Virus record (IMG/VR): IMGVR_UViG_3300042549_010246 | Coordinates: 1 to 64,000 of that record | Strand: one strand, 5' to 3' | DNA length: 64,000 bases | Source: a virus | Shown here: positions 14,729 to 32,034 of the stretch, in pieces | Layout of the letters: each line of letters begins with the position of its first letter | Position numbering within the stretch: the stretch's first letter is position 1 | Made by a program: the position numbers and the translations under genes | Notes under the pieces: generated by a model | Told to the model about the DNA's origin: nothing | What the model saw: only the letters and a program-made list of their open reading frames with translations | Databases searched by the model: none

Positions 14729-17023
14729 ATGTCATTTAAAGACGTTTTAAATAAAAATTATGCGCACACTCAAAATTCGGTGAAAAAATACGAAGTGGGT
14801 GGTAAAGTAGTAACCAAAGAAGGTGCTACTAATGATGCAAAGAAAGGAGGTTATTTTGATGGTAGGCCCCACTCCAAAGGTGGCATAAAAGCCGTTAACA
14901 TCGATAATAATCAACCGATAGAAGTCGAAGGTGGCGAAGTCGTTATCACAAAACGCGCAGTTGCTGACGACACGAAAAAAGAATTTGAAGGCAAGATGAT
15001 GACCAACAAACAAATCTTGTCAAAAATAAATGAATCAGGTGGTGGAGTTTCTTTTGAAAAAGGTGGACAAGTCAAATCAGACGATTCATCATTTTCTAAC
15101 GGTGGTAAGTTGGATGAAGATGAATACTATATTTCGGATGAAGATTTGAATTTTGAAATTGACGAAAAAGAGTTTGCGGATGGTGGTGTTACTCCTACAA
15201 AGAACGAAATTGAAACACTCATTATTCGAATAGCCGATATTCAAAATCCCGAAAAACTGAGTAACAAAGGTGTTACCAAAAAGTATCTTGGAACTTATGA
15301 GCAAATTTTTGAAATGGTAGTTTCCGCTGAGGATGTGGACGAAAAGTTTGAATCATTCGGTCAAAACGAAAAAGGCAAAGACTTTAACTATTTCACTATT
15401 ACGTTGACGAATCCTGTTGTAAGATTTGATACAGACCAAGAAGGGGTAGAATTTTTTAAGAATTTGTTTGGTGTAGACTATGTGAAGGTAATTTATAAAA
15501 ACGCGCTTAGTACTCAAGAAGTAAAGATTTTAGATATCGTGAATTTAAAAAATTTGCAAAATGAATTTGCAGATTTGGAAGAATTACAAGATGCTTTAGT
15601 TCAAAAGAAAACTGTTTTAATGGATGCATTTACCAAGACAGATTTGAAAAATGCTCTTAAAAAATTGAATGGTGGCACTGATGGTAAGGGTATTTACTAT
15701 TTAAGTAATACTAAAGGTTACAGTGGTACACGTAAAAAGGAATATTATGGGATTACACAAGAGGGTATTGACTATTTAAAAAATCTTTCTTTGTCAAACT
15801 CCAATACGCCTACGGCAGATGAAAATCAAGAACTCCCAAGTACTGTAGAGTTCCCATATTTTGCTCCCGATGCGGTAAAAGAGTATAATCCTGAAGCCCT
15901 GACTGTTGAGAAAAGGCGTATTGATAATTTAATTTTAAGCCAAGAGTTTGAAAACAAAATTGAAAAAAAGAAAAAAATTGTTAATGCTGCTACCGAAATA
16001 TTAAAAGACATACCTGTTGAAAACGTATTAGAAAGGGTAGAATTATCTTTGTTGAGGGATGCTGAAGAAAAGGAATTGCAATTATTGGAAAATCCAACAT
16101 TGCAAAAAGTTAAAAAAGAATTTTCTCTCCGTTTTTACAGCGGTAACATTTTGGAAGACTTAATACAAGCAGGTCAAATTGAACAAACAAATCTTGTCAA
16201 TTTTAGGCCAAATGAAGCAAATTTGCGCTCCAAATACAATGCATTAATGCTATATATTATAGATTATCCAACCTCTTACGTTGCACATTGGATTGAGAAT
16301 TTTTTTGGTAAATTTATGCTGTATAGCGATTCTTACAATTTTGATTATGCGAGTTTGAGTAATTTTTCAAACATACCTCCAACGATAAGCAAAGTAGGTA
16401 GGCTTTTGAATTTAAATAACAAAAAAGTGATGTATGTTCCTGAATTAGTTTTTCAAGGATTATCACAGCCATATGACAGGGTAGGGTTCGAAGTTTTTCC
16501 TATTTCGTACTATGCAACGAATTGGGATTATGCTGATTGGTTTGCAACTACCAAAGGACAAAAATTAAACACGAGGGGCGTTATTCTTCCGTGTTTTTTA
16601 AATATTCGAAGGGCTTTGGAATTAAGTTTCTTTTCCATCCAAAAAGTTAGCCCTACACAATTTTTCGATGCCGTTTATTTACAAACAGGTTTGACACCTG
16701 AAGAGTTGAAAGTAAATCCTGCCTTTTTATCACCCAACACACCTGATATGGAAGTTTGGGTTTACATAAGGAGTAATACAGAAATGTTAAAAATCTTGAA
16801 AGAATCAAAAATTGTGGATGGTATTCATATGTATGAAAATAACCCCGCAGTGGATGAAAATGACGCAGCATATATGACCGAAGTTTGGGTGACTTTTTAT
16901 CCTGAACAAACTAAAGTGGCTCCATTGTTTCAATATGCAGATGTGATTTATGGTGCTCGTAAAGAAGTAGACCGAGGATGGTTTACTAAGTCGCAATTTT
17001 TAAAAAGTGGAGGTACGATATGA
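14729..17023 (+). CDS. Polyvalent protein with C-terminal ART-PolyVal-like ADP-ribosyltransferase domain
   Basis: PELVFQG...SYYAT...ILPCFLNIRRAL...DGI...EVWVTFYPEQTK; N-terminal GRPHSKGG...EVEGGEVV. Confidence 0.6.
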   Translation: MSFKDVLNKNYAHTQNSVKKYEVGGKVVTKEGATNDAKKGGYFDGRPHSKGGIKAVNIDNNQPIEVEGGEVVITKRAVADDTKKEFEGKMMTNKQILSKINESGGGVSFEKGGQVKSDDSSFSNGGKLDEDEYYISDEDLNFEIDEKEFADGGVTPTKNEIETLIIRIADIQNPEKLSNKGVTKKYLGTYEQIFEMVVSAEDVDEKFESFGQNEKGKDFNYFTITLTNPVVRFDTDQEGVEFFKNLFGVDYVKVIYKNALSTQEVKILDIVNLKNLQNEFADLEELQDALVQKKTVLMDAFTKTDLKNALKKLNGGTDGKGIYYLSNTKGYSGTRKKEYYGITQEGIDYLKNLSLSNSNTPTADENQELPSTVEFPYFAPDAVKEYNPEALTVEKRRIDNLILSQEFENKIEKKKKIVNAATEILKDIPVENVLERVELSLLRDAEEKELQLLENPTLQKVKKEFSLRFYSGNILEDLIQAGQIEQTNLVNFRPNEANLRSKYNALMLYIIDYPTSYVAHWIENFFGKFMLYSDSYNFDYASLSNFSNIPPTISKVGRLLNLNNKKVMYVPELVFQGLSQPYDRVGFEVFPISYYATNWDYADWFATTKGQKLNTRGVILPCFLNIRRALELSFFSIQKVSPTQFFDAVYLQTGLTPEELKVNPAFLSPNTPDMEVWVYIRSNTEMLKILKESKIVDGIHMYENNPAVDENDAAYMTEVWVTFYPEQTKVAPLFQYADVIYGARKEVDRGWFTKSQFLKSGGTI

Positions 17024-18450
17024 ACATCGGTCAAATATATAAATTTGGAGGAGTCAATTTAAGTGGACTAAGCGCGGCTAAACTTAATGGTAAAACAATA
17101 AATAATGTCGAAATTGATGGTAACTATATCCAATCAATTTATTGGGCTAATGATTATTTCTATGGCCTTCCAAGCGAAAACAAAATACCAATATTGATAC
17201 AGTTATCTAAGAATGATTACAGTAAGATTTTTTTGGTTGGATTTTTTAAACACCAATTTTTTGATGAAATTTCTTCTACTGACGAAACTGTCAATTTCGA
17301 AATAAAAATGAATCCTGTTGTGATTCGGAACTCATATGGTTTTTATTATGAAGAAGAGGCTTATGATTTCTTTATGGACCTGAATGAGCGATATCAACAA
17401 CAGCAAACAGGTAATCCACCACCACAGGAGCAAGAACAAAAAATGTTATTGGCTCGATTTGATATCAACTCAGACAATTATTTGTATGTGTATGAATCAG
17501 AAATGACACCTGATTCGAGTGGTAATTTTACGGGAGAATACGTTACTACACTTGATTTAAGACAGGCAAAACTTAATCAATCAACTGCGTTAGTAAAAGA
17601 TTATACGGTAGATGTAAATGGACAAGAGGTCAATTTTTTATTGGTTTATGATAAAAATTTCAGTGATAAAGTTTCTTTGCCTATCCCAACGATTTTAAGT
17701 GGTAATGGAGGACCTTCCACTACTACATACTTTATGATTCCCCTGCAAAACGATGGTACAGGTCACGGAGAGCCACCACAAACGCCTTCACAGGGCTCAC
17801 AGGGCTCACAGGGCTCACAGGGCTCACAGGGTTCACAGGGTTCTCAGGGTTCTCAGGGTTCTCAGGGTTCCCAAGGTTCTCAGGGTTCCCAAGGTTCTCA
17901 AGGCTCAGGTGGTTCACAGGGTTCTCAGGGTTCTCAGGGTTCTCAAGGTTCAGGTGGTTCGCAGGGCTCTCAAGGCTCACAGGGTTCTCAGGGTTCTCAG
18001 GGTTCTCAAGGTTCTCAAGGCTCACAGGGTTCTCAGGGTTCCCAAGGTTCTCAAGGCTCAGGTGGTTCACAGGGTTCTCAAGGTTCGCAGGGCTCGCAAG
18101 GCTCTCAGGGTTCTCAGGGCTCTCAAGGTTCTAAGGGTTCATCAGGCTCGCGTGGTGCGAGTACATCAGGGACTTCAGGAAGAGCGGGTAATTTACAAGG
18201 AGGGCAAGATAGCGGTGCCGTATATGGTGATACTCAAACTGAAGATATTCCATTAATACAAATGGTTGCAGACACACTTAATAAAACTACAAACCAAGTA
18301 CGCGGTCAACTTAGAACTGCGGGTTCCGCTATGATGTTCCTTGCATCAAATCCTCAAGCAATTGAACCTATCAAACAAAATTTAGGCGTAGCAAATACCA
18401 ACATATCAATGAATGATTTGGCAAAAAAAATAATTGAAAAAATAAGATAA
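17020..18450 (+). CDS. Protein with (Gly-Ser-Gln)n collagen-like tract
   Basis: About 41 G-X-Y triplets between globular ends. Confidence 0.8.
   Translation: MNIGQIYKFGGVNLSGLSAAKLNGKTINNVEIDGNYIQSIYWANDYFYGLPSENKIPILIQLSKNDYSKIFLVGFFKHQFFDEISSTDETVNFEIKMNPVVIRNSYGFYYEEEAYDFFMDLNERYQQQQTGNPPPQEQEQKMLLARFDINSDNYLYVYESEMTPDSSGNFTGEYVTTLDLRQAKLNQSTALVKDYTVDVNGQEVNFLLVYDKNFSDKVSLPIPTILSGNGGPSTTTYFMIPLQNDGTGHGEPPQTPSQGSQGSQGSQGSQGSQGSQGSQGSQGSQGSQGSQGSQGSGGSQGSQGSQGSQGSGGSQGSQGSQGSQGSQGSQGSQGSQGSQGSQGSQGSGGSQGSQGSQGSQGSQGSQGSQGSKGSSGSRGASTSGTSGRAGNLQGGQDSGAVYGDTQTEDIPLIQMVADTLNKTTNQVRGQLRTAGSAMMFLASNPQAIEPIKQNLGVANTNISMNDLAKKIIEKIR
17794..18162 (+). repeat. 9-bp coding repeat encoding GSQ
   Basis: GGYTCNCAR repeats with synonymous variation. 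Confidence 0.95.
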
Positions 18451-18458
18451 TAAATTAT

Positions 18459-19862
18459 ATGGCACAAAGAGGCACATTAGAATACTATCAGGAAATCGTT
18501 AATGATACGAACAATCCTGAATTACTTAGAAATCAAGCACAAAAGCAAATTGACCGTTTGGCTTCGATTGGCTCTGCTCAGGTTCAAACAGGTGCCGTAA
18601 CAGGCAATATGGACCCACAAATTCAAGCGGTGATAAATGCGATGCAGGCTGCAGTAAATGCATATGCGGGAAAGTCAGCAAATCCACAGCAAATCAAACA
18701 AATTGTAGACGATGAAATTGCAAAAGCAAAAATTGATTTTTCTCAGTTGAGCGATGGATTGAAGGCAATGCTTCAGTCTCAGGTTAAAGTTGAATTGACT
18801 TTACGTCAAATGGCCGTAGTTTCTACTAAAGTCGTAAGTAATTCCTTTATTAAACGCCCGCTTGTTCAAGATTTGTTATCTGACGTGCAAGCACGAAATA
18901 ACGCATATTTGTATGGCGGTGCAGGAACGGGTAAAACATTTACTGCGGGTGAAATAGCGGATTTGTTGGATTGGGAATTGATTACTTTAAATTGTAACCA
19001 ATTTACTTCTCCAATTGATATCATCGGAGGTCAAACTATTGATGGTTATCAAGAGGGTAAAGTATCTATGGCTTGGGCAAATGAAATCATTTCCCCAAAT
19101 GGAGACAAAAGAAAAGTATCAGGAGTCGTTTTGCTGTTAGATGAGTTGCCTAAACTTGACCCAAACACTGCGGGTTTGTTAAACGAAGCGTTAGCCAAAG
19201 TCAAAGATTTCAAATTGGATAAAGTGACGGGTGCAATTAAGCCACCAACTATATTGAATGGTCGAAATGAAAAATTGGTTTTGGGTAATTTGATGGTAAT
19301 TGCAACGGGTAACGTACCCTTAAATACTATTGACCCTGACTATGAAGCAAACTTCAAACAGGATTTGTCTTTGCAAGACCGTTTTGTCGGAAGCACATAT
19401 AAAATCTTTGTAGATTATGAATATGAATTCAATTCAATTATGGAAGGTTTCGCATTCATATGGATTTATGGTACCAAATTGCGCGAAAAAGTGATTTCAT
19501 TGAACGCCACAGGACAAGCGTTTGTATCAATTCGTTTAATGATGAACTTAAAAGAGACTTACAAGGTTTACAGAGAGGTAGTGGACAAGAACAAGCAAAA
19601 TGTTGGGAATCAAGCATTTGATTTAATTACAGAACCTAAGACGATTATTGAATCTCTTCAAACCTTTTTAGATTTGTTCAAACCTGCAATTAAACAAGCA
19701 ATTCAAGATGACCCAATGACCAATCTTGATAATTTTAAAGTAATTGTAGATGCAAAAAATCAAATGCCATATGACCCAAAAGCACCAAATTTCAACACGC
19801 AATCGGAACTCAGTGAGGCCGAAAGAATGATTAAAGCATACGAGGCGAGTAAAAATTCGTAA
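18459..19862 (+). CDS. MoxR/CbbQ-like AAA+ ATPase
   Basis: GGAGTGKT Walker A, LLLDE Walker B, ATGN and DLSLQDRF. Confidence 0.85.
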   Translation: MAQRGTLEYYQEIVNDTNNPELLRNQAQKQIDRLASIGSAQVQTGAVTGNMDPQIQAVINAMQAAVNAYAGKSANPQQIKQIVDDEIAKAKIDFSQLSDGLKAMLQSQVKVELTLRQMAVVSTKVVSNSFIKRPLVQDLLSDVQARNNAYLYGGAGTGKTFTAGEIADLLDWELITLNCNQFTSPIDIIGGQTIDGYQEGKVSMAWANEIISPNGDKRKVSGVVLLLDELPKLDPNTAGLLNEALAKVKDFKLDKVTGAIKPPTILNGRNEKLVLGNLMVIATGNVPLNTIDPDYEANFKQDLSLQDRFVGSTYKIFVDYEYEFNSIMEGFAFIWIYGTKLREKVISLNATGQAFVSIRLMMNLKETYKVYREVVDKNKQNVGNQAFDLITEPKTIIESLQTFLDLFKPAIKQAIQDDPMTNLDNFKVIVDAKNQMPYDPKAPNFNTQSELSEAERMIKAYEASKNS

Positions 19863-19867
19863 TTGAT

Positions 19868-21520
19868 ATGGCAATTTTTGGTAATTGGACAGGATTTCCT
19901 ATTGTTGGTTGGTCATATGATGACCAAGAGGCTTTAATAAAGGCAATTGCAGATTTTTCGGGCAATCGGGTTGATTGGGGCCAAAGGACTTATGACGAGG
20001 AAATTTCTACATACCGTCAAGATTTTTATGACTCAAGTTTTAAAAAGGTACTTTTTGATTTTGGTTTAAAATTTCAATTAGGAGGCTCAAAAGACAAATC
20101 TCGAATTATAACTACTGACAAACCACAGGGCATTTTTGATTTTTCGTTGGCCTCAAAAGGCTTGTACAGAGTTCCTGAGTATTATTCAGAAAAGTTGGCA
20201 ACAGAAAAGCCTAATAGGTTTGCTGAATATGAAACCCTAAGTGGTATTGTGCCACCGAATTTTGTTCAGCAAAGGAATTTACTTGGTATTCGCCAATTTT
20301 ATTTCATTGATGAGGATGGGAAGGAATACATATGCCAACAATATCAAAAAGGAACTGTTGCAATCAAAGACAACGTTAAGGGTGCCAAATTAAAATTTGC
20401 AACCAATACTAAAAAAGTTTATTTGAAATTCAAAAGACAGGGCGGTAAAGTAAATTACGTTGAAATTTACTCTTTATTTTATTATACAAGTGTTGTCGGT
20501 AATGAGGGTTTTGCCTTACGACATCTACCTGCAATTATGGTTTGTGAATACTTTGAAAGTCTTGGTATTAAATGCCGTTTTTATCCGACTCGATTTGTTG
20601 TGTTCAGTTCAAACCATACAATCAGAGAAAAAGATTTGCTCACAGATGCAGAACTTCCGATGTATAAAATACGAAATTTACTTACAGAGAAGGCTGATTA
20701 TTTAACTGTTCAACCATTTTTAGCAAAAGAATATGGCGAAGAATTTGACCCTGCAATAGCCTTGGCTATATCAAAAGAGTATTCGGGACAAATATATAGA
20801 AACGTAATTAAAGAGGCGCAAAGGCACGATTTGGTTGCGGACGCATATCCCACAGGAGGAAATCCTGATTGGCAGGAAATTGATTATAGGGTGGGATTTG
20901 AGCGGTATAAAAATAAATATCAAGAGTATGTAAAAGCAGGTATTTTTAAAGGTAAAGAAGTAAAACCTGAGGCTCAAATTTTATTTCACTCGATGTCAAT
21001 TAAGTACTATCAATATGAAATTTTTAATGAGGCCCAAAATATTTATAGATTAAATGAGATTGATAGAATTATAGCGAAGTCTCAATATTATGGTAAATTT
21101 ATCGAGTGGTGGATGAATTTTTGCGCAATGAAATTACGCGATTATATTCTTTTATTGAACACAAAAGAACCGAGAAAAGAAATGGAGTATATCGCTAAAG
21201 AAATGAAAAACTTTTTGAGCGAATACGTTTATTACGTTAACAATAAAGCGGTAACAGATGAGGATAAACGATTTCGTGACCAAGCGATTTTCCGCTATAT
21301 GGGTCCTATATGTTCACAAGAATATTTATCCTTAAACGAACAAGTTTCGGGTGTTGATATCAAAATAAATCCTGATATCAAAGGATATATTAGTAATTTG
21401 ATTAATGATGTTGCGATTTATGCTGAAAATGAGCCATTCCCAACACCCGCAGAACAAATTGAAAAAATGGATGCATTGGCAGAGAATTTATATAATGAAT
21501 TGGAAAGGGTAAACATATGA
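19868..21520 (+). CDS. Probable MoxR partner (vWA-like) protein
   Basis: Directly downstream of MoxR; no clear DxSxS seen. Confidence 0.4.
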   Translation: MAIFGNWTGFPIVGWSYDDQEALIKAIADFSGNRVDWGQRTYDEEISTYRQDFYDSSFKKVLFDFGLKFQLGGSKDKSRIITTDKPQGIFDFSLASKGLYRVPEYYSEKLATEKPNRFAEYETLSGIVPPNFVQQRNLLGIRQFYFIDEDGKEYICQQYQKGTVAIKDNVKGAKLKFATNTKKVYLKFKRQGGKVNYVEIYSLFYYTSVVGNEGFALRHLPAIMVCEYFESLGIKCRFYPTRFVVFSSNHTIREKDLLTDAELPMYKIRNLLTEKADYLTVQPFLAKEYGEEFDPAIALAISKEYSGQIYRNVIKEAQRHDLVADAYPTGGNPDWQEIDYRVGFERYKNKYQEYVKAGIFKGKEVKPEAQILFHSMSIKYYQYEIFNEAQNIYRLNEIDRIIAKSQYYGKFIEWWMNFCAMKLRDYILLLNTKEPRKEMEYIAKEMKNFLSEYVYYVNNKAVTDEDKRFRDQAIFRYMGPICSQEYLSLNEQVSGVDIKINPDIKGYISNLINDVAIYAENEPFPTPAEQIEKMDALAENLYNELERVNI

Positions 21521-21828
21521 AAATAAGTCAAAATGCGTTTAAAACGCTACAAGAAATACTGAAAAACTTGCAAATTGCGAGCACGAATGGTGCTAAAGTA
21601 TTGAACCTTTTGGTACTACAGAATCCAATTATCCCTGATACATTTTTCATTAAATATGATATTGAATATATGTCAGGGGGTGACAGAAAATTTGAACCAC
21701 GCTTGACCCAAATAACCGACTCAGGTGAGCCAATGGATATTAATGACCAATTCGACAATGTGTATCAGAGATACGCATTTTTAGGGGATTGTATCCCCGT
21801 TAATGTATCTGATTTAAAAATAAAATAA
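21517..21828 (+). CDS. Hypothetical protein
   Basis: 103 aa, overlapping both neighbours. Confidence 0.65.
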   Translation: MKISQNAFKTLQEILKNLQIASTNGAKVLNLLVLQNPIIPDTFFIKYDIEYMSGGDRKFEPRLTQITDSGEPMDINDQFDNVYQRYAFLGDCIPVNVSDLKIK

Positions 21829-24737
21829 TGGCTAATCGGGATAAATATAATTTTACACAGAAAACAGACGATTGGGGCTCTATTTACTATCAGAATGTCC
21901 CATCATATAGCAATACAAGTATTGGAAGTACAGGAAATGCTTATTTAATAAGAAATTTCCTTAAAACTTTTTTTCCATTTTTGGATGTATCTGTTAACAA
22001 AACTTCAGGTGGCTCAGTCAGTGTCAAAATGCTGAATTATGAAGTGAAATTCAAGTTTACTGAAAATGGAGTAAATAAAGAATTTTTACTTAATCCAAGA
22101 GCGTTGGAGGATATTTTGGAACCACTATTCGAAGGTCAAGGATTCGATGGAATGACCGATTCAACATATTCAAAACCATTGCCTAAAATGTTGAATGATT
22201 TAGGTGATGATACGAGTTATGGATACAATTATCTTTTCATTGGAGCCAACAATCTTGATGGAATATATGAGGTAGAGTTAAATGCTAATATTTCCGTATC
22301 AGCAGCGTACCCATTTATTGTTGGACGTAGCAATGGTAAAATGGTTGACAAATATATTAAAATTCCTGAGAAAACTCAGGAGTATATAAGAAAAGTCGCT
22401 AATTCAATCAGCAGTTCACCGTCAACTCAAACCAATAAAAGTGATTTGGTCACTTTGGAAAAAGGGGATGCAAAATTATCATTGACGACTTTAGAACAAG
22501 AAATAATCGATTTTTTGGCAGAAAATAATTCGGGTGTGGAGTTGATTACAATTCGTAATTTTTTCTTAGCGAATAAAAATTATGTAGACAGTGATGTTAA
22601 TCGTGCGATAAGTAATTTGCTTCAAAAAGACTTAGTCGATAATAACCAAGTTAGTAATGTGGGATTACTGTATTATGTCACCACAAAAGGTTTGGATTAT
22701 GTGAGTAATCCCGCTGTACAAATATTAGTGGAGGAGGCTACCCGAAATTTAACTGAAGACGAAGAAGATATTTTAAAATTATTAAATCGAGGCCCATCAC
22801 TTACTCTAAACCAACTTTACCAATTTTTAACAATACCTGACCTACGAATAAATGATGGTGTAAAAGAGTTATTAAAAGATAATTTTATAGCATTTGTAGA
22901 CCCCACAAAAAAAAGACTCAAATATGAAATCACTCAAAAGGGTAAAAATGCCCTTCTGAATACATCGGCTTCACCCGCTGTACAAGCAGTAGTGGAAGAG
23001 GCCACACCCGTATCAAAGCCTATTCCAATGGCTACAGAAGGAGAAATGGCGAGTTTTAAATTTATAAGTCAAAACATCGACACGTTAAAGGATATGGAAA
23101 ATAATGACCCTGAGTTGTTCGATGCGCTGAGTCAAGGTATTAGATTGTTGCAAAAATTGACGGCAAATACGACGGGAGAACTTTTACCTTTCACACCTAC
23201 AGGAGACCAAGAAAAAATTGAATCCGCTTTAATGGATGATGATTTTGATTTGAATGAAGCAGACTTGGCAGAAATTGACTTGTCAGGAATTGAAGAAGAT
23301 TTAGAACTAAGTGATGATGAATTAGCCTTTACAGACCTTGGTGAATTCGAGGAGTTAAAAGATTTTGTAGAAAATGAATTAATGCCGAGTAAACCCCTGA
23401 CACCTGAATTATATTCAGTTTTAACTGCAGTTGTAGTAGCAGGTATTGGCAAAGGTGATGAAGCCACAAAAAAAGACATTTTTGATTTAGCATCAAAGGA
23501 AAGGTCAAAAGGTTATCGAATTGACAATGCAGGCTTGAAACCCGAAGAAAACCAAATTAATAATTTGACTTGGGATTTATTCACGTTGGAGGAACAGGGA
23601 TATGTAAATAGAAAGGCTGATAAAACTTTTGGTACAGTTTACTACAGTGTCACAGATAAGGGTGGTGAAGCAATATTGAAGTATCCTGAAGAACAAAAAC
23701 AAGTATCAAACGCACCTTTTGACATCGAAAATTTGAGTGCTCTTGAAAAAAATATTTTGCTCATTTTGGATAAGCCACCCGCTGCAGAAAAAGGAACATT
23801 GTATAATGAAATGACCCTATCTGAAATTTGGGCAGAAGTGGATGAGACAATAGCGTCTCAATATAGTAGAGATTTGGTTGAAATTGCATTACATAATCTC
23901 ATCGACTATCAATTAGTTAATGAATTAAATCGTGTACCTGTAGAATACAGAAATTTTGATGATGCAAGGACAAATTCAACTATATCGGAATTAAAAAAGA
24001 AACCCACAACTTTAACTCCGACAACATTAAAAATACTTCGAATTTTATACCGTTTTACAGGTAAATTATCCGCTGATAATATTAAAGATGATTTATCATT
24101 TGAAAATGTTGCATTTCCTCATAAGGCAGTATTTAATCGTTTAATTGAATTGCGAGATATGGGATTAGTTGAAGAAACTAATACATCTTATGGAGGAATC
24201 GTGTGGCAAATTACACAGGCAGGAAATGAATATATCGATAAACTCCCAAAAGAAAAAACAGTAAATCAAATTAGGGAAGAGGAAAAACAACAGAAAGCCA
24301 AAAAAACAGGCGATGGACTTGATTACGAATATTACTTGATAGCCAAGATTTTAAATGACGATACAGGATATCTCACTGCAGGAAGTGTAACAACAATTCT
24401 TCAACAGCAATTCAACAAAACCCCAAAGTGGGATGAAAAGGAAATATTACTAAAACTTCAGGTTTTAGCGGCTTTAGGAGTGGTTGCATCATACATTCAG
24501 AACTCGGTTCCCTATTTTGAAATTAATGAATTAGGAGAAGACGTTGTAAAGTATTTAACTGAAAAAGATAATCAAGGTTTATTTAGTGCTACAGAAACGA
24601 AAGTTTCCTCACGACCATCTCCAACGGACAGTGCCACGATGTACAATGTAGGAACTATAAAAGTAGGTAATGACGGTAACAATTGGCAGATAAAAGAAAG
24701 TAAAACAGGTGTCAAGCGTTGGGTAAAAATGAAATAA
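21828..24737 (+). CDS. Polyvalent protein: LPD29-like domain, about six winged-HTH repeats and a C-terminal RPSP/GNDG domain
   Basis: IRNFLKTFFP...SGGSV...FDGMTD; repeated LT..E..IL..L...Y.IT.KG; RPSPTDSAT...GNDG..W...GVKRW. Confidence 0.7.
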   Translation: MANRDKYNFTQKTDDWGSIYYQNVPSYSNTSIGSTGNAYLIRNFLKTFFPFLDVSVNKTSGGSVSVKMLNYEVKFKFTENGVNKEFLLNPRALEDILEPLFEGQGFDGMTDSTYSKPLPKMLNDLGDDTSYGYNYLFIGANNLDGIYEVELNANISVSAAYPFIVGRSNGKMVDKYIKIPEKTQEYIRKVANSISSSPSTQTNKSDLVTLEKGDAKLSLTTLEQEIIDFLAENNSGVELITIRNFFLANKNYVDSDVNRAISNLLQKDLVDNNQVSNVGLLYYVTTKGLDYVSNPAVQILVEEATRNLTEDEEDILKLLNRGPSLTLNQLYQFLTIPDLRINDGVKELLKDNFIAFVDPTKKRLKYEITQKGKNALLNTSASPAVQAVVEEATPVSKPIPMATEGEMASFKFISQNIDTLKDMENNDPELFDALSQGIRLLQKLTANTTGELLPFTPTGDQEKIESALMDDDFDLNEADLAEIDLSGIEEDLELSDDELAFTDLGEFEELKDFVENELMPSKPLTPELYSVLTAVVVAGIGKGDEATKKDIFDLASKERSKGYRIDNAGLKPEENQINNLTWDLFTLEEQGYVNRKADKTFGTVYYSVTDKGGEAILKYPEEQKQVSNAPFDIENLSALEKNILLILDKPPAAEKGTLYNEMTLSEIWAEVDETIASQYSRDLVEIALHNLIDYQLVNELNRVPVEYRNFDDARTNSTISELKKKPTTLTPTTLKILRILYRFTGKLSADNIKDDLSFENVAFPHKAVFNRLIELRDMGLVEETNTSYGGIVWQITQAGNEYIDKLPKEKTVNQIREEEKQQKAKKTGDGLDYEYYLIAKILNDDTGYLTAGSVTTILQQQFNKTPKWDEKEILLKLQVLAALGVVASYIQNSVPYFEINELGEDVVKYLTEKDNQGLFSATETKVSSRPSPTDSATMYNVGTIKVGNDGNNWQIKESKTGVKRWVKMK

Positions 24738-24756
24738 AAAATAAAGAAATACGAAT

Positions 24757-27700
24757 ATGAATAATCAAGCAAAAATCAAACTTGAGAAGATAAAAAAACT
24801 GAAACTCCCTGAAAAAGTAAGGGCTACAGCAGACAAAATTGAAAAAGGTTTGTCAAGTGAAGACGCGGCTACTCAAAAGAAGGCTGAAGATGCATTGAAT
24901 AAACTTTATGAACAAATCAAAGCAGTTGCGGCTAAACAGCGCGAAGAAAAAACGGAAAAAGAAGTCAATGAAAAGACGATTGTTCCTCAAAACGCTGACA
25001 TCGCGGCTCCTGAAGTTAAAAAAGAGTTAACAAAAAAAACCACGGTTGCAGATGAGATTATTGATAAGGCATTAAAAAACGACCCTGAACTTGCGGGATT
25101 TGGAAAATCAGATAAGCGCAGAGACGCGGGTCGTAAAGCACTTCCTGCGGGTAGACGTGTATCTAAAAAAGGATGGAAAAATCAATATGGTAAATCTGAT
25201 GGTGGACGTGTGTATTACGAAAACCGTGAAAACCGTAAAGACCGTAAAAGTCCTGCGTACAAAGCAGGATATCCTTTTTTGGCCAAAGGGGGTAAAATTC
25301 ACCCTATGGATGACGAAGACGGAACTTTTTATGTAAACCTTTACAAAACTAAAGGAGACCAAATTGTTTCAGTGGATGAGCGCGAATACAATTCTAAAGC
25401 ATCGGCTATGACTTATGCGATGATGAAACGCGATTTTATGAAAGTTGGTGAAAGCATATTTGTTATGAATGATGACGGTGATGTGTTGTACACTTCAATC
25501 GGTACCAAAAAAATGGCTATGGGAGGCAAATTCCCTTATCAAAATGCTCAAGTGGGAGATAATGCTCGAGTAATTCTTGACAATAAAATGGGAACTATTA
25601 TGGTGGCTTATGGCCGTAGATTCCATTTGAAATTCCCTGATGGAACTGAAAAGACATATTCCGCTGAGGAATTGGAATTTTTTCCGACGGATGAAATGAT
25701 GGCTGATGGTGGTAATATTGGAAATCCAACATTCGTAGTTAAAAACTTAGACGGAAAAGTTGTTTTGAAAACTAAAAGTTTAAATAAAGCATCGGATTAT
25801 CACGGTTTACTCGGTAGGGATACTCATACGGTTGAAACTCTTGACGGCAGAATATTGAGTGGTTCAAGTGATGATATGGCCGATGGTGGAATGATGCCTA
25901 ATAGTGGTAAAAAATATGATTATTCTGAGTATTTCGACTTTAATGCTAAAGGTAATTTTGCATCTAATTTAAATGGTAAAAATTACGAAATAATTTATCG
26001 TGATGACAAATCTAAAATGTATGATTTGTTTGAAGATGGGAAAAAGATAAAAAGTAGTATGTATGTTCTAAATTTAATGTTTTTTCCTGATGAGAGGAGG
26101 GAGTATTTTCAAGGTACTATGAGTGATGATGCTTTAAAAAGTATTTTAGATTATGAATATCCTAATAATAGTTTTTCTGTTGAGTATGATTCAATATCAG
26201 GGACAAAAATTTATGGAGCAAAATCCAACCTTTTAAAGGCACAAGCCAAACTCAAAGATATTTATAAAATGAAAACCACATTGATGGGTGAAAATCAAAT
26301 AGGTAAGAATTATTTATCCGTTCCTTCACAATTTGTGTATTTTGCTAAAGGTGGTATGATGGCCAAAGGTGGCTATATGGCGAAAGACGAAAATTATGAG
26401 TATGTAAATACATTCAACTATTATGATAGCAATGTTCCTGTACCTCAGGATGATTTTGAAAAATTGATTGATGCTTATCACAAAAAACTTTCAGGTGATA
26501 AACTTGATGAGGCCAAATACAATGTATTGAAAATTCAAATGGGTAACTATTTGGGCCATAAAACAGTTGACAAAATGGAAGAATACATTGAAAAAACACA
26601 CAATGCACACAAAATGGCAAAAGGTGGCTATGTTTCCAAAAGAGATGTTGAAGCAATCACTATCATAAATCCAAATAAAAGTGATTCCGCAAAGAAATAT
26701 TTGACATTTAAGAGTGGTGAATTCCTTAATGGATTAAATCAGTTTGAGAAAGGTGGAAAATTGATTGATAATTACACTTACATCAAGCGAGGTGATATTT
26801 TTGCTGTTTATTACAAGGACAAAACTAAAAAAGCCTATTTCCAAACTACGATGGAAGATAAACCTAAAAATGGTTTTTGGGTCAGCAAAAAGGCTTTAAT
26901 TAGAGAGGGTGGAAAAACGCCAAGTAAGTCAAGTGCAACTTTTGATGCTTACGAATCATATGATGAATTATCCAAGTTGAATGGCAAAATTTGGGACAAA
27001 TTAAAAATTGAAAGTGGCAGTCAAATTTATGCTTCGGACTCATTACAAAAGAAATTGGCTATTGAGTATCCAAATTCAGGTATTGATGCCAAATTCAAAA
27101 GTTTGAAAGCCGCTCAAAGAAAAAAAGTTGCTGAAGTTATGACCGATGAAAACGAGCATAGTTTACGTAATTATTTGACACTACGAGGATACCTTGGACC
27201 AAAAGAATATGACAGTTATGAAAGAATATTTGACCCAAAAAGTCGGTATGTATTAAATCCTGATAATTTCAAAAATTATACTGCTGATAAGGTGAAAGTT
27301 GGTTCAATTTTAACTACAAAAACAGGTACAAAAGTAAAGGTAGTTGAATACAATCCTCAATACGGAGTGAAGGCTATACGAATGGATGCGACTGCAGCCG
27401 ATAAGCCATCTCAATATATAGAATTGTCAAAATTTAAAGGATTTGAAAAAATGGCTGATGGAGGTTCTATTGGTTTTGAGGCACTTTCCAAAAAAGTTGC
27501 ATCGAGGTATGCGGGCAAAAATGTAAAGCCTAAATATCAAAAAGAATATGGAAAGACCTATGACAAGGCTGAAGCAAAAGAAGTCGGTGACAAAGTAGCG
27601 GCAAAAGTGTACCGTATGCAGCAAGGTAAAATGGCCTCAGGTGGTAAAATTGAATTGCCTCATCAATTGGACAAATACTTTACAAAGCCCGCAGGTACAA

Positions 27701-28041
27701 TCGAAGTTGAAATGAGTAAATTAATTCCGATTCGTGCACGAAAAAGCGGTATTGAGAATGCAGAAGTGTATATGAAAAAGGCTTACGATGGCGAAATGTC
27801 GAAGCGTAAACCTATTGAAATTTACAAGACGCGCAATAAAAAGTATCGCGTGAACGATGGAAATAGCACTTTTGCCGTTGCTAAAAAGAATGGTTGGGAA
27901 ACGATTTATGCTACCGTAGTTTCCAATCCAAACGTCACAAAACGCGCGGAAAAAAGTACATTTACAATAGCAAAAGAAATAAGAAAAGCAGGTGAAAGTT
28001 GGTCGGATGCAGTTAAAAGAGTAAAGGAAAACAGAAAATGA
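24757..28041 (+). CDS. Basic multidomain (polyvalent) protein with about 11 xxxGG motifs and a C-terminal ParB/Srx-like domain
   Basis: MADGG/MAKGG repeats; KPIEIY...YRVNDGNST..VAKK.G. Confidence 0.7.
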   Translation: MNNQAKIKLEKIKKLKLPEKVRATADKIEKGLSSEDAATQKKAEDALNKLYEQIKAVAAKQREEKTEKEVNEKTIVPQNADIAAPEVKKELTKKTTVADEIIDKALKNDPELAGFGKSDKRRDAGRKALPAGRRVSKKGWKNQYGKSDGGRVYYENRENRKDRKSPAYKAGYPFLAKGGKIHPMDDEDGTFYVNLYKTKGDQIVSVDEREYNSKASAMTYAMMKRDFMKVGESIFVMNDDGDVLYTSIGTKKMAMGGKFPYQNAQVGDNARVILDNKMGTIMVAYGRRFHLKFPDGTEKTYSAEELEFFPTDEMMADGGNIGNPTFVVKNLDGKVVLKTKSLNKASDYHGLLGRDTHTVETLDGRILSGSSDDMADGGMMPNSGKKYDYSEYFDFNAKGNFASNLNGKNYEIIYRDDKSKMYDLFEDGKKIKSSMYVLNLMFFPDERREYFQGTMSDDALKSILDYEYPNNSFSVEYDSISGTKIYGAKSNLLKAQAKLKDIYKMKTTLMGENQIGKNYLSVPSQFVYFAKGGMMAKGGYMAKDENYEYVNTFNYYDSNVPVPQDDFEKLIDAYHKKLSGDKLDEAKYNVLKIQMGNYLGHKTVDKMEEYIEKTHNAHKMAKGGYVSKRDVEAITIINPNKSDSAKKYLTFKSGEFLNGLNQFEKGGKLIDNYTYIKRGDIFAVYYKDKTKKAYFQTTMEDKPKNGFWVSKKALIREGGKTPSKSSATFDAYESYDELSKLNGKIWDKLKIESGSQIYASDSLQKKLAIEYPNSGIDAKFKSLKAAQRKKVAEVMTDENEHSLRNYLTLRGYLGPKEYDSYERIFDPKSRYVLNPDNFKNYTADKVKVGSILTTKTGTKVKVVEYNPQYGVKAIRMDATAADKPSQYIELSKFKGFEKMADGGSIGFEALSKKVASRYAGKNVKPKYQKEYGKTYDKAEAKEVGDKVAAKVYRMQQGKMASGGKIELPHQLDKYFTKPAGTIEVEMSKLIPIRARKSGIENAEVYMKKAYDGEMSKRKPIEIYKTRNKKYRVNDGNSTFAVAKKNGWETIYATVVSNPNVTKRAEKSTFTIAKEIRKAGESWSDAVKRVKENRK

Positions 28042-29153
28042 AACTATTAAAATTAACTAAACAGGAAGTCGCAAAACTTCAAAAGCAATATAAATTTGGT
28101 TCTGATTTGACCAAACAGGATGTAGTTGTCAAAATTTTTAATCCATATGGTCGCGGCAGATGGTATTTGGTAAACCAAGACCCTGATGACCCTGATTATA
28201 TTTGGGCAATCGTAGATATGGGAATGGGACCTGAGGTTGGCTCGGTAAGTTTAAGCGAACTACAAAACTTTCGAATGCCTGTATATGGGTATAAATTTCC
28301 TTTGGAAAAGGACAGGTTTACACAACGGAACGCTGTTGAAGTGATTGAAGGATTACAGCGAGGAAACTATTTTGCAGATGGTGGTGAAATTAAGGTCAAA
28401 GTTGCATCCAAAGATATTTACAACAAAAATCACTACAGGGGTATTTTTCAAGATTCCGATAAGGATGGTGTTCCTGACATAGATGATTTGCAGCCTAAAA
28501 ATCCCAAATTACAGGGTGAAGTTGAAGAGTTAAAGTTTTCTCAAGTCTTTGAACGATTGCTCAGAACAAAAAAGTCTTTGGACAAAATTATGAGGGCGGC
28601 CATCGCAGAACTTGAAGCAATTTCTCCCGCAGGAAGCACAATTTATGCAAGAACTAAAACTCCATACTCAATTGTCAATAAATTGATAAATAAAAAGTCT
28701 ACAAGTCTTGAAAGGACGAAGTTAGGCGATGTCGAGGGTTTGACGGATTTAATTGGAACTACGGTAGTTGTGAAAAGTTTGGATGACATTAATGATGTAG
28801 CAAAAGAATTGGATAAGGGAGTATTAGGTGAGATTTTGGAGAAAAAAGATTACTATGAAAAACCAAAAGCGGGATATCGCGCGATTCACTACATTACAAT
28901 TTTTGAGGGTGTCGCGATTGAAGTTCAATTAAAAACTTATCGTCAGAAAGAAATAAATGAGGCTTCGCACGAGGCTTATAAATATGAAAATCTTGAAGCG
29001 GACCGTTTATTGTATTTAACCAATTTGGCAAATGAGGCTGACAAAGGAAATAGAAAAGCACAACTTGCAATTGACAAGATATTCCTTGATAAAAAAGCAT
29101 TGAAGGAATCTTTGTACAAGGACAAAATCAGACGAAATAAATTACCTTCGTAA
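28038..29153 (+). CDS. DUF2958-like domain fused to a RelA/SpoT small alarmone synthetase domain
   Basis: KIFNPYGRGRWYL...EVGSVSLSEL; RTKTPYSIVNK, DLIG, GYRAIH, EVQLKT, H..YK. Confidence 0.8.
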   Translation: MKLLKLTKQEVAKLQKQYKFGSDLTKQDVVVKIFNPYGRGRWYLVNQDPDDPDYIWAIVDMGMGPEVGSVSLSELQNFRMPVYGYKFPLEKDRFTQRNAVEVIEGLQRGNYFADGGEIKVKVASKDIYNKNHYRGIFQDSDKDGVPDIDDLQPKNPKLQGEVEELKFSQVFERLLRTKKSLDKIMRAAIAELEAISPAGSTIYARTKTPYSIVNKLINKKSTSLERTKLGDVEGLTDLIGTTVVVKSLDDINDVAKELDKGVLGEILEKKDYYEKPKAGYRAIHYITIFEGVAIEVQLKTYRQKEINEASHEAYKYENLEADRLLYLTNLANEADKGNRKAQLAIDKIFLDKKALKESLYKDKIRRNKLPS

Positions 29154-29167
29154 TAAAATTTACATAT

Positions 29168-30250: not shown

Positions 30251-30252
30251 TT

Positions 30253-30978
30253 ATGGAAATCAAAATACCCGCAATTCAAAAGGAGTGGAAAGTCCCATCC
30301 AATCAACCACCTTGGAAAAACCAAGCAATATCTGTAATTAAGAAAATTAAAGCAAATTACAGTGTTCAAATGGCAAAAGCATCACAATATACAGGTGTTC
30401 CTGTGAATATTTTGGTAGCGTTTGCGGCTACGGAGAGTGGAGGTGCTTTGAATCAAACTTTAAATGGACCATCAAAAGGTATTATGCAAGTCAATCCGTC
30501 ATCGGCTTGGCAGGCTTTATCTGACCAAATAAAAGTCGATACAATAGGTCGTTTTTATCCTTTGTATCAATTGGCACCAAATGCATTTGTTGTAAAGAAA
30601 GCGGTTGCTGCTAATTCTGTAGGAAAGGCTACTGATTATCTCACTTTGAAGCCTGTTTCTACGGCTGCGCCTTACCTTGGACAAAGAATGGTGGCAGATG
30701 CACAATTCGCTATTTATATGGGGTCGTTATTGTTGGCTCAGTTAATTGCAGGAACTATTGCAAAAACAGGTCAGATTCGTCTTGACCATATTATTGTAAA
30801 GTATAATGCGGGCACGGGTCGATTTAAACAGGTTGTAACAAATCGTGGTTTGGAAAGTGCGAGTGTGGATACCACCCAACTATACAGCAAATTAGGGATT
30901 CCTGTTTCTCAAGCGTACATTGTCAAGATGATGGGAATCAATGGATATTTAGATGTGCAAAAACAGGGATTGGCGTGA
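30253..30978 (+). CDS. Lytic transglycosylase (SLT domain)
   Basis: AATES catalytic Glu, GIMQV and YNAG. Confidence 0.85.
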   Translation: MEIKIPAIQKEWKVPSNQPPWKNQAISVIKKIKANYSVQMAKASQYTGVPVNILVAFAATESGGALNQTLNGPSKGIMQVNPSSAWQALSDQIKVDTIGRFYPLYQLAPNAFVVKKAVAANSVGKATDYLTLKPVSTAAPYLGQRMVADAQFAIYMGSLLLAQLIAGTIAKTGQIRLDHIIVKYNAGTGRFKQVVTNRGLESASVDTTQLYSKLGIPVSQAYIVKMMGINGYLDVQKQGLA

Positions 30979-30992
30979 TAACAATAACGGCA

Positions 30993-31022
30993 TTGAACTG
31001 TAGAAAAAAGTCACTATTTTTG
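30993..31022 (+). promoter_or_regulatory. Bacteroidota sigma70 promoter
   Basis: Exact TTG-N19-TATTTTTG. Confidence 0.75.
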
Positions 31023-31047
31023 TTTTAACAATTTAATTAATAACGCT

Positions 31048-31167
31048 ATGTCAAACACTAAATCAGGATTCGTACCAATGGCTATTGGAATTGCATTGTC
31101 TCTTGCCACAATTTATGTTATTGCATATTTTGCAGGTAAAGGATGGGAAAAGGCAACCGATAAATAA
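31048..31167 (+). CDS. Small membrane protein (39 aa, not in track)
   Basis: MSNTKSGFVPMAIGIALSLATIYVIAYFAGKGWEKATDK. Confidence 0.7.
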   Translation: MSNTKSGFVPMAIGIALSLATIYVIAYFAGKGWEKATDK

Positions 31168-31169
31168 TT

Positions 31170-31664
31170 GTGCAAGGAATCTTTAAACAAATATTGGATG
31201 CGACGGAAGGTCGTCACGCAAGTGGAGTTCTCTATGCAGGGGCTGTAGGAATTTTATTGTCTAATATTATACCAACCCCCGCTGAAGCATTATTCTACCA
31301 TACTGAAAAGAAACTCAGAAATAAATGGGATAATGATGAAATAACTGCTGAAAAATATTGGCAAAAAACTGCAAGCGCATATTACTTGTATAAACCCGTT
31401 TGGTGGGGACTTGTAATCAGTGCAATGTATTTTACCAAGGGCGATGTGAAAAACAAAGCAAAAATTGGTTTAATAATTGTAACTGCAGGTGCGGTTGTGG
31501 GCATAATTTACAAAAATTACACAAAAGACATTCGCGATATACGTCGAGAAGTATTGACTTCTATGGAGCCCAAGAAAAATGTTACAGGTCCTACAAAACC
31601 TGTAAAGGTGGGTCAATATAGGTCAGTTCTCAGAAAAGGCAACGTATTGAAGTTTGTCGCTTAA
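31170..31664 (+). CDS. Multi-TM membrane protein
   Basis: Three hydrophobic segments; GTG start. Confidence 0.7.
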   Translation: MQGIFKQILDATEGRHASGVLYAGAVGILLSNIIPTPAEALFYHTEKKLRNKWDNDEITAEKYWQKTASAYYLYKPVWWGLVISAMYFTKGDVKNKAKIGLIIVTAGAVVGIIYKNYTKDIRDIRREVLTSMEPKKNVTGPTKPVKVGQYRSVLRKGNVLKFVA

Positions 31665-31674
31665 TAAATAAAAA

Positions 31675-32034
31675 ATGGAAAATTCAACAGCAACACCTGC
31701 AGCAGCAGCACCCGCAACACCCGCAGCACCTGCGGCACCCGCAGCACCCGCGGCACCATCAGCACCCGCTATGGCACACGGTGGTAGCGTTGCAGACGCA
31801 GCACCACAAATGATAGAGGGTGGTGATGTATCATCAATAGAAAATAATTGGGGCACTTGGATAGCCATCGGTTTAGTCTCTCTTACGCTTGTTGCATTAA
31901 TTTTACAGATTGCTGTACATCGCAAAAATTTGAAAAAAGTCGATGCAGACGATGAAGCATTGCTTAAAGATGTCAGAGAACTGAAAATGAATGTGAAGAA
32001 ACAAATGGGCGAAAAGTATGAAACCTTGGCTTGA
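31675..32034 (+). CDS. Membrane protein with Pro-Ala linker and MAHGG motif
   Basis: (PAA)n, one TM and a C-terminal coiled coil. Confidence 0.75.
   Translation: MENSTATPAAAAPATPAAPAAPAAPAAPSAPAMAHGGSVADAAPQMIEGGDVSSIENNWGTWIAIGLVSLTLVALILQIAVHRKNLKKVDADDEALLKDVRELKMNVKKQMGEKYETLA

Follow-up and report, generated by a model that had tools for sequence, protein, structure and literature searches.

A seven-residue peptide with the consensus [M/Y/F]-A-[K/D]-G-G-x-[M/I/V/L] stands at the boundaries of modules in long mosaic proteins of a lake virus, and the same peptide is the point at which those modules are exchanged. The virus is represented by IMG/VR record IMGVR_UViG_3300042549_010246, a linear contig of 84,705 bp (~35% G+C) that is rated 100% complete, and the window referred to throughout is its first 64 kb. 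We refer to the peptide as the heptad, to each place that it occupies as a seam, and to the protein of open reading frame (ORF) 24757, which carries many copies, as a cassette protein (Table 1). Judged by comparison of protein sequences, the heptad is a real and strongly conserved junction peptide of a widespread lake virus lineage, and apparently one that has gone undescribed: a literature search on its literal forms returned nothing on viruses, judged by title and abstract, and within the literature listed no Gly-Gly maturation-protease code of this form was found described for phages.

The heptad and the proteins that carry it

The first-pass annotation of this DNA had drawn attention to a recurrent motif ending in Gly-Gly in ORFs 24757, 14729, 28038 and 31675, and every copy that it listed lies where it was said to lie; its FAKGG-MMAKGG at 26341 is the tandem seam of ORF 24757. 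This recurrence is well beyond what residue composition would produce. The pattern [MFLIYVW][AE].GG occurs 10 times in ORF 24757 (mean 0.27 and maximum 5 in 20,000 residue shuffles), and the stricter [MFY]A.GG occurs 8 times (shuffle mean 0.065, maximum 2). Because the number of GG dipeptides in the protein is itself ordinary (12; shuffle mean 6.2, maximum 17), it is the context of the dipeptide that is non-random. That context surrounds 15 of the 25 GG dipeptides in the four named ORFs and only 1 of the 69 in the other 94 ORFs. Likewise, a genome-wide count gives 16 matches in 98 ORFs, compared with 4.8 ± 2.2 (maximum 15) in 2,000 shuffles, and 15 of those 16 fall in the four ORFs. Weak or different variants also occur, namely IREGG in ORF 24757 and AKKGG, HSKGG and EVEGG in ORF 14729.

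A search of 5.8 billion proteins returned 288 homologs of ORF 24757 at E <= 0.001, and the motif is present in all 120 of these that were examined, at a mean of 10.3 copies and a minimum of 3. A logo built from 1183 distinct GG contexts has conserved positions on both sides of the glycines (0 and +1): at −3 the residue is M (39%), Y (17%), F (16%) or L (7%), with 1.75 bits; at −2 it is A (63%) or E (12%), with 1.67 bits; at −1 K (40%) and D (20%) are preferred; +2 is free; and at +3 M, I, V and L together make up 76%, with 1.36 bits. Within 847 strict contexts, the frequency of proline is 0.000 from −3 to +1 and at +3, and 0.002 at +2, compared with a background of 0.027, and the hydrophobic fraction drops from a baseline of 0.296 to 0.11–0.25 at −8 to −5 and to 0.09–0.21 at +4 to +7. 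A proline-free element with flanks low in hydrophobic residues is thus placed between two short polar spacers. The spacing of successive copies is equally constrained: it is exactly 6 residues in 163 of 1348 cases and 12 residues in 23, it is never 2–5 or 7, and nearly all other spacings are at least 25 residues. Tandem copies overlap, with one hydrophobic residue serving both.

The heptad recurs in proteins that are otherwise different from ORF 24757. ORF 14729 has internal seams FEKGG, FSNGG and FADGG, and among its 47 homologs a fixed 25-residue leader ending KKY[E/D]VGG is found in 40 and a C-terminus of exactly G-G-x-[I/L] in 45 (TI, AI, AL, KL, TL, VL); of the remaining two, one ends GGKVK and one is truncated. 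More distant relatives of ORF 14729 keep the motif and follow it with a tail of 4 or 12 mostly basic residues, and the distant homologs P0446–P0449 carry a precomputed ART-PolyVal (PF18760) label at the C-terminal domain. By its pattern of conservation, part at least of the N-terminal GG cluster of ORF 14729 is a conserved region of ~70 residues and not a set of seams: found at residues 30–115 (window 14729–15000) and common to all family members, the distant ones included, it follows the pattern ..GRPHSxGGIKA..QP[IL]E[VM]EGGEVVIT..EFEG.M[ML]TN..ILS.INE.GGGV.F and has no match in Pfam, the PHROGs or the PDB. The small membrane protein of ORF 31675 has orthologs in related loci L003, L006, L007 and L008 that keep MA[QSE]GG, within an Ala/Pro- or Gln/Thr-rich tail that is itself not conserved. 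Furthermore, the protein L005_13372/L009_13387 of the relatives ends YRKGGKL, and ORF 77981–79024 (genome coordinates, minus strand; L001:13981–15024) ends FKRGGQV, a complete heptad at a free C-terminus. The latter protein (347 residues, highly charged, free of cysteine) lies in the region of the RecT and nuclease genes and has no Pfam match.

The distribution of the heptad follows the virus. A nearly unchanged ORF 24757 is found in contigs from 20 lake and freshwater metagenome runs belonging to 19 studies, 7 of which may be where the present record itself came from, with no RNA dataset among the holders listed. Neither DNA nor tblastn searches of GenBank phages gave a match to the region, to ORF 24757 or to the capsid candidate considered below. 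IMG/VR loci L003–L009 are relatives, in which gene order is kept and 1–3 motif-rich genes are found in each. Loci L010–L023 are unrelated phages (35–69% G+C) that have only the C-terminal domain of ORF 24757 in common with this virus, which there forms part of proteins carrying MuF, topoisomerase IB or C39-like domains, and their large ORFs hold 0–3 motif matches each. Judged from these loci, the heptad goes with this virus lineage and not with a particular domain. The label "ParB-like" that the first-pass annotation gave to the shared C-terminal domain found no confirmation by any hidden Markov model: ten pieces of ORF 24757 gave nothing significant in Pfam at E <= 1, and ORFs 14729, 24757 and 31675 are without a match in the PHROGs.

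The cassette proteins are also depleted of cysteine. There are 34 cysteines in the 125,322 residues of the 120 examined homologs of ORF 24757, with none at all in 101 of them, and within the genome ORFs 17020, 21828, 24757, 28038, 30253 and 35612 are cysteine-free; for comparison, the glycosyltransferase genes have 1.4–3.3% cysteine. Such depletion is consistent with a location outside the cytoplasm or in a particle. The cassette genes are conserved in order, and next to them are genes for an SLT transglycosylase, for a HerA/FtsK-like ATPase and for membrane proteins; from this gene position and the lack of cysteine, the cassette proteins may be virion cargo.

Table 1. Positions of the cassette protein, the heptad copies and the candidate protease in the window (aa, amino acids; HSP, high-scoring segment pair)
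Feature	Coordinates	Strand	Remarks
Cassette ("polyvalent"-type) protein, ORF 24757	24757..28041	+	1094 aa, 123.9 kDa, no cysteine; 11 modules of 43–184 aa; conserved head aa 1–179, variable middle, conserved tail aa 904–1094
Seam heptad LAKGGKI, aa 175–181	25279..25299	+	Closes conserved head; G178, G179 nearly invariant (alignment A1)
Seam heptad MAMGGKF, aa 253–259	25513..25533	+	HSP starts and ends cluster at site
Seam heptad MADGGNI, aa 315–321	25699..25719	+	
Seam heptad MADGGMM, aa 374–380	25876..25896	+	
Tandem seam FAKGGMMAKGGYM, aa 529–541	26341..26379	+	Two heptads, 6-residue register, one hydrophobic residue in common
Seam heptad MAKGGYV, aa 620–626	26614..26634	+	
Seam heptad FEKGGKL, aa 663–669	26743..26763	+	
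Weak variant IREGGKT, aa 715–721	26899..26919	+	Arg at −2 and Thr at +3, off-logo there; doubtful seam
Seam heptad MADGGSI, aa 899–905	27451..27471	+	Before DUF5661-like module; G902, G903 nearly invariant
Seam heptad MASGGKI, aa 959–965	27631..27651	+	Before conserved C-terminal domain; 30 HSP ends in bin 961–980
764-aa protein, ORF 14729	14729..17023	+	25-aa leader ending YEVGG, conserved GG-rich N-terminal region, variable middle
C-terminal heptad LKSGGTI-COOH	17000..17020	+	Last seven residues of ORF 14729
Seam heptad FADGGEI	28371..28391	+	Between DUF2958 and RelA_SpoT (Pfam), ORF 28038–29153
Heptad MAHGGSV	31771..31791	+	In Ala/Pro-rich low-complexity N-terminal tail of ORF 31675–32034, small single-pass membrane protein
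Candidate motif reader, zincin-like protein	39776..40558	+	260 aa; HEFSH, downstream E-x-E-A-D

Module boundaries and exchange at the seams

The position of the motif relative to recognizable domains is consistent with what the first-pass annotation had supposed, namely that it lies at domain boundaries, and in particular that FADGG separates DUF2958 from RelA/SpoT in ORF 28038. Pfam places DUF2958 at residues 6–93 of that protein and RelA_SpoT at 205–317, with FADGG between them at 112–116, and the seam is kept in 5 of 5 orthologs (as FADGG, FEDGG or YAKGG). Likewise, in homolog P0100 a Zeta_toxin domain (residues 268–429) has motif copies on either side at 203–207 and 444–448, its sole internal GG being that of the P-loop, and a DUF2958 domain at 1415–1506 is followed by a copy at 1520. 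Motif copies in these proteins thus lie outside the Pfam-defined domains. The relatives carry Zeta_toxin, DUF2958, RadC and RelA_SpoT modules, and their RelA_SpoT proteins begin MAKKTRKYGIGG or MKKIQRKKYEIGG. Shorter cassette proteins are also found in the relatives (P0150–P0201): some begin with a RadC-type JAB domain whose HxHx7Sx2D motif is intact, followed by a tandem seam and then by modules common with ORF 24757, and others have a DUF2958 head or a RelA_SpoT end.

A more general picture emerges when 129 proteins are cut after each hydrophobic-x-x-G-G. The resulting 1716 segments (median 65 residues, quartiles 47–97) fall into 260 clusters. Among 66,956 significant segment pairs, the alignment spans 90% or more of each member in 62%, a figure that orthology partly inflates. 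Between a conserved head (clusters 1-3) and a conserved tail (5-2-0), modules of the middle are inserted, deleted and permuted; for example, 13-7-6 in some proteins corresponds to 7-13-6 in others, and cluster 4 is third in some and twelfth in others. When all proteins are compared with all by BLAST, a motif Gly-Gly is no more than 8 residues away for 44% of the 9249 distinct interior HSP starts and 52% of the 8754 interior HSP ends, where random positions give 19%, with starts peaking at −6 to −3 and ends at 0 to +4 relative to the motif. The heptad is therefore a boundary and an exchange point of modules. Its dependence on what follows is evident in the DUF5661-like modules: all 74 distinct internal copies have the motif within the 14 residues after the module, and all 13 terminal copies end without it (..QQGK, ..QLGKK or similar), such that in these modules the motif is present only where another module comes next.

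This last observation bears on the idea that the heptad is a structural element, in which Gly-Gly forms a tight turn, the two hydrophobic residues pack against the modules on either side, and the whole is part of their folds. The hydrophobic residues at i and i+6 around Gly-Gly have the arrangement that such packing would use, and EVEGGEVVI in the N-terminal region of ORF 14729 looks hairpin-like by eye. However, the 13 terminal DUF5661-like modules stop 5–7 residues past their core without the hydrophobic-Ala part, which argues that the upstream half of the heptad is unneeded for that fold. The motif also occurs in low-complexity tails, at extreme termini and in tandem, and we regard this explanation as very unlikely.

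At the level of DNA, the earlier statement that the codons of the copies differ, so that selection must act on the peptide, holds in its first part, as codons do vary between copies, but their choice is biased. In seven of seven genomes GGT makes up 67–85% of motif glycine codons, compared with 41–53% of the remaining glycine codons in those genes; for the window by itself the counts are 21 of 30 versus 70 of 131 (p = 0.11). The non-motif GG dipeptides of this genome lack the bias (GGT 65 of 136, or 48%), and the motif alanine avoids GCA. Pairs of motifs with the same peptide have identical codons at 63% of degenerate positions when 40% are expected, an excess that orthologous sites inflate. 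The GGT bias could have arisen if the motif spread by duplication, if accurate translation is selected at a critical site, or if the DNA acts as microhomology in exchange.

Logan contigs from four lake runs of four studies, aligned to 24500–28500 and used only in the parts that contigs cover, provide a view of variation at these sites. One X17 contig joins 25859 to 26343 and so skips residues ~369–528, which is one module plus one seam; a second diverges 18 nt upstream of the 25699 seam and then reads its own ..FAKGG; and in an X17 contig similarity begins at 28370, one base ahead of the FADGG seam of ORF 28038. The X11, X13 and X20 contigs match only the tandem seam at 26348–26381 or break within it. 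Overall, 8 of 15 loose or joint ends lie within 2 nt of heptad DNA, which covers 7.3% of the stretch, with the caveat that 5 of these 8 are at one tandem seam and that de Bruijn contigs break at any shared 31-mer. What the contigs give is shared DNA at seams and a module-indel variant, not a recombination rate.

These features of the DNA invite the possibility that the heptad is a passive seam of recombination, a flexible linker that nothing reads and whose DNA (ATG GCT GAT/AAA GGT GGT) offers microhomology for cassette exchange, perhaps through the RecT and exonuclease pair of the virus, with repeated exchange keeping the seam uniform. The GGT bias in all seven genomes, the avoidance of GCA and the absence of the bias from non-motif GG would follow from this, as would the sharing of codons between copies, the contig ends near motif DNA, and the unrelated contig that has only the 34-nt tandem seam in common with this genome; moreover, both RecT and a PDDEXK nuclease are encoded. 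Nonetheless, an imperfect identity of 15–21 nt is very short for recombination, and the contig result is not independent of the way in which contigs break at 31-mers and of the single seam that supplies most of the ends near motif DNA. The peptide is also kept where no exchange of cassettes is visible, at the C-terminus of ORF 14729, in its leader and in the tail of the membrane protein, and its degeneracy is chemically sensible (M/Y/F; K/D/E) around a fixed Gly-Gly and two fixed hydrophobic places, which points to selection on the peptide. We therefore consider a seam without a reader to be distinctly improbable.

Processing code or docking tag

We tentatively favor, with somewhat less than even confidence, the reading that the heptad is the processing code of a virus-encoded protease. 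It would be a short linear recognition motif, exposed in polar spacers at every junction of the cassette effectors and also closing short N-terminal leaders, and a protease of the virus would read it and cut the 124-kDa string and its neighbors into single modules of 5–21 kDa, either during maturation of the particle or after delivery into the host. The seam is at the same time the site at which modules are gained, lost and reordered among relatives, since each of them is flanked by one and the same peptide, encoded by DNA of similar spelling. Recognition of the heptad by a protein, cutting, the identity of the cutter and packing into the particle are all steps that we infer. What speaks for processing is the position of the motif at junctions only and at the ends of leaders, the published precedent for it, and the presence of modules, enzymes and toxins among them, that could plausibly work on their own. 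That the heptad is a unit of recognition is further suggested by its conservation as an island in the otherwise non-conserved tail of the ORF 31675 family and by the fixed ends of the ORF 14729 family.

The best candidate for the cutter is the zincin-like product of ORF 39776–40558. Four of 5 related records encode it, at 66–95% identity, the fifth record being itself a 50% fragment, and its family comprises 657 representatives at E <= 0.001. HExxH is found in all 139 full-length members among the best 150 of the 657, and none of H187, E188, H191, E201 and D205 varies among 58 diverse members, so that the family has the conserved HExxH and the downstream third ligand by which zincins are recognized. 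A peptidase of another kind, the RadC-JAB domain, was considered as a Gly-Gly protease and dropped because it is absent from the genome; RadC is, in addition, judged unlikely to hold a ubiquitin tail, as it lacks the groove, by Iyer et al. 2017 (PMC5512222).

Several observations weigh against processing, and against this enzyme in particular. Members of the ORF 39776 family have no significant match to a protease in Pfam or the PDB: in the 58 members the Pfam matches are all sub-threshold (PhageMetallopep in 9, with a best E of 0.0047; M48 in 8; SprT-like in 4; M56 in 4; M78 in 2), and the best E-values in the PDB are 0.16–1 (alignments A2 and A3). PF18894 gave no match to the genome at E <= 10, and the Atlas leads for ORF 39776 all scored below 0.9. 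The enzyme is linked to the heptad through co-occurrence, so its role as the reader would be an indirect conclusion. In six frames of the complete genome no known family of Gly-Gly-specific protease was detectable at E <= 1, with 0 matches to Peptidase_C5 and Peptidase_C48 (the African swine fever virus (ASFV) family itself was not searched), to Peptidase_C39, to the prohead proteases S77 (T4 gp21) and S78 (HK97) (PF03420, PF04586), or to JAB/RadC (PF04002, PF14464); sequence and profile searches of the PDB likewise returned nothing significant for ORF 14729 or alignment A1. The ends of some carriers are also awkward for a cutter. Given that 45 of the 47 ORF 14729 homologs end G-G-x-[I/L], a cut after Gly-Gly would free only a dipeptide, and L005_13372/L009_13387 and ORF 77981–79024 end in a complete heptad too. 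Similarly, cutting at tandem copies in their strict 6-residue register would free hexapeptides, and position +3 is about as conserved as −3, which suits a bound peptide at least as well. ORF 21828, with 969 residues, in the same gene block and free of cysteine, is without any motif. Lastly, in an earlier boundary test, with segment pairs in different contexts, the ends of alignments were not sharp: 302 of 518 continued at least 10 residues beyond the upstream seam and 255 of 518 beyond the downstream seam, although the context filter of that test probably failed where neighboring modules travel together.

Many of the same observations fit a tag that is never cut. It is possible, albeit rather unlikely, that the whole heptad binds a receptor in the assembling particle, with the chains staying intact and many copies giving avidity; candidates for such a receptor are the interior of the shell, a membrane protein, and the MoxR/CobS-like AAA+ ATPase encoded at 18459–19862. 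A docking tag would account for the complete heptad with a free carboxylate at the ends of the ORF 14729 homologs and of two other families, for the symmetric conservation of −3 and +3, for tandem copies in fixed register with one hydrophobic residue in common, and for the same heptad in the disordered tail of a membrane protein (ORF 31675), and it would need no Gly-Gly protease of the kind that the genome searches failed to detect. It also has a parallel in phage crAss001, whose cargo protein gp45 extends as one chain across capsid and tail in its published description (PMC10172136). However, docking has no need for placement at every junction or at junctions only, as in the DUF5661-like modules (74 of 74 internal copies with the motif, 13 of 13 terminal copies without), no receptor was identified, and ORF 21828, in the same block, is without the tag. 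Cleavage and docking are not exclusive, as a protease must also bind the heptad. A dual "cut-and-swap" code, in which the zincin would cleave cassette polyproteins at the heptad and its DNA would serve as microhomology for in-frame exchange of cassettes, combines the processing code with a role in exchange, and we hold this fuller version to be unlikely.

Known systems, neighboring genes and implications

It is informative to compare the cassette proteins with the polyvalent proteins of phages (Iyer et al. 2017, PMC5512222), which are described there as long mosaics that combine many unrelated effector domains; their genes lie among the late genes, and the proteins are presumed to accompany the DNA into the host. 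Processing by a metallopeptidase into functional units has been proposed for them there, and DarA and DdrB of phage P1 are reported to be cleaved before packaging. ORF 24757 likewise joins many unrelated domains and has mosaic relatives, and the domain repertoires overlap in RelA/SpoT and RadC, with ART-PolyVal seen on distant homologs only. The hub domains MPTase-PolyVal, ART-PolyVal and ddrB-ParB (PF18818, PF18760, PF18763), of the kind that defines much of the polyvalent class, gave 0 matches in the genome at E <= 1, and MuF, another hub domain, was seen only in the unrelated phages in which the C-terminal domain of ORF 24757 recurs. There are also differences, in that the candidate peptidase is encoded here by a gene of its own and most modules are small and unnamed; furthermore, the words "linker" and "glycine" have 0 occurrences in the available part of PMC5512222, which describes no conserved junction peptide. 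On balance, the cassette proteins behave as phage polyvalent proteins do and probably belong to that class.

The parallel with adenovirus and ASFV that the first-pass annotation had drawn does not extend to homology, as no clan-CE protease (Peptidase_C5, C48) is found, and is an analogy at most. ASFV processes its polyproteins after Gly-Gly. The clan-CE form of the site, (M/I/L)-x-G-G|x, differs from the heptad, in which the hydrophobic residue is at −3 and Ala occupies −2 in 63% of contexts. The adenovirus protease AVP cuts several particle proteins at a short Gly-containing consensus, with Met-Arg-Gly-Gly as a substrate and IVGL|G as a site, and it releases the 11-residue pVIc from pVI (PMC4246237). 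The release of pVIc recalls the short tails after the last heptad of some proteins here, whereas relative to Met-Arg-Gly-Gly the hydrophobic residue of the heptad lies one place further from Gly-Gly and an additional hydrophobic residue is conserved at +3.

Other processing systems share parts of this pattern. The prohead proteases of T4 (L/I-x-E) and of phiKZ-like phages (S/A/G-x-E) read codes that recur in many head and internal proteins, from which leaders and propeptides are removed. The heptad is similar as one short code in many proteins and different in its chemistry, and T4 and phiKZ-like phages are not known to build strings of swappable modules around their codes. The double-glycine leaders of C39 systems resemble the 25-residue Gly-Gly leader of ORF 14729, but most copies of the heptad are internal. 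Polyubiquitin and the precursors of ubiquitin-like proteins end in Gly-Gly plus a short tail and are trimmed by JAB and deubiquitinating (DUB) peptidases. Their head-to-tail modules and the 1–2 residues beyond Gly-Gly are like the G-G-x-[I/L] ends described here, whereas the modules of the cassette proteins are mutually unrelated and the genome encodes no JAB/RadC domain. A role of JAB peptidases at C-termini is given in PMC5512222.

The cargo proteins of crAss001 are packed in the virion and ejected before the DNA (Bayfield et al. 2023, PMC10172136), and the available part of that paper treats gp45 as an uncut chain, with 0 occurrences of the stem "cleav". No sequence similarity between crAss001 and this virus was found. 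There are 4 motif-like sites among the 20 GG of gp45: FAEGG at 260 and FAYGG at 559 follow the resolved segments 214–245 and 425–552, INEGG at 444 lies inside a resolved domain, and one site is near the N-terminus. We considered gp45 as a structural check on the motif as a domain end and dropped it, since 2 of 4 sites following resolved segments is too weak a result.

The remainder of the genome provides context for these genes. Pfam scans, which covered ~55 of the 98 ORFs, recognized many glycosyltransferases and FkbM methyltransferases, the SLT transglycosylase, PAP2, RecT, the PDDEXK nuclease, the MoxR/CobS-like AAA+ ATPase and a weak HerA/FtsK-like ATPase, and within the same coverage no terminase, portal, HK97 capsid or prohead protease. 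The MoxR/CobS-like gene (AAA_5, E 7e-11; PHROG "porphyrin biosynthesis") and the 550-residue ORF after it occupy 18459–21520; they are adjacent in all relatives, between the ORF 14729 family and the cassette proteins. ORF 21828 (21828–24737) consists of several winged-helix repeats (PadR/FUR/HTH_45-like) and is highly variable: L003 has it as two separate ORFs, the L004 version is 34% identical, and in both L005 and L009 it is replaced. An open frame of 5338 residues, made up of Gly-X-Y triplets and accompanied by shadow ORFs in other frames, runs from 52323 through the end of the window at 64000 and on to genome position 68339, preceded by three large glycosyltransferase/FkbM genes. A second short motif, hydrophobic-x-N-A-D-G(G), recurs in this genome (35612–36313, 36566–36949, 38454–38678, 39269–39565 and 42243–43869) and in loci L024–L027. 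It is found in the N-terminal arm of the 233-residue capsid candidate, in the form F[LV]NADGFFDDDL that is kept in L003, L007 and L008, and in small membrane proteins, where the soluble part is joined to the membrane anchor. The ORF 39269 family keeps it across relatives as FVNADGG, FYNADG, FENADG or YNNADG. An Atlas search with the capsid candidate gave nothing useful, with a best score of 0.76.

Mosaic effector proteins are already familiar from phages, whereas the way in which their parts are marked off, set free and exchanged is not. One junction peptide, present in hundreds of proteins, offers a simple rule for splitting uncharacterized viral proteins into units, one that covers the 288 homologs of ORF 24757 from lake metagenomes, and the seam is a natural system for the in-frame shuffling of domains. 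If the heptad is cut, it would constitute a new protease–substrate code in bacterial viruses. As a docking tag, it would instead be a candidate handle by which to load foreign proteins into particles. Were the combined cut-and-swap code true, this lineage would make small injected effectors from a polyprotein, a strategy otherwise typical of eukaryotic viruses, and one seven-residue element would both process and diversify the arsenal of co-infecting viruses.

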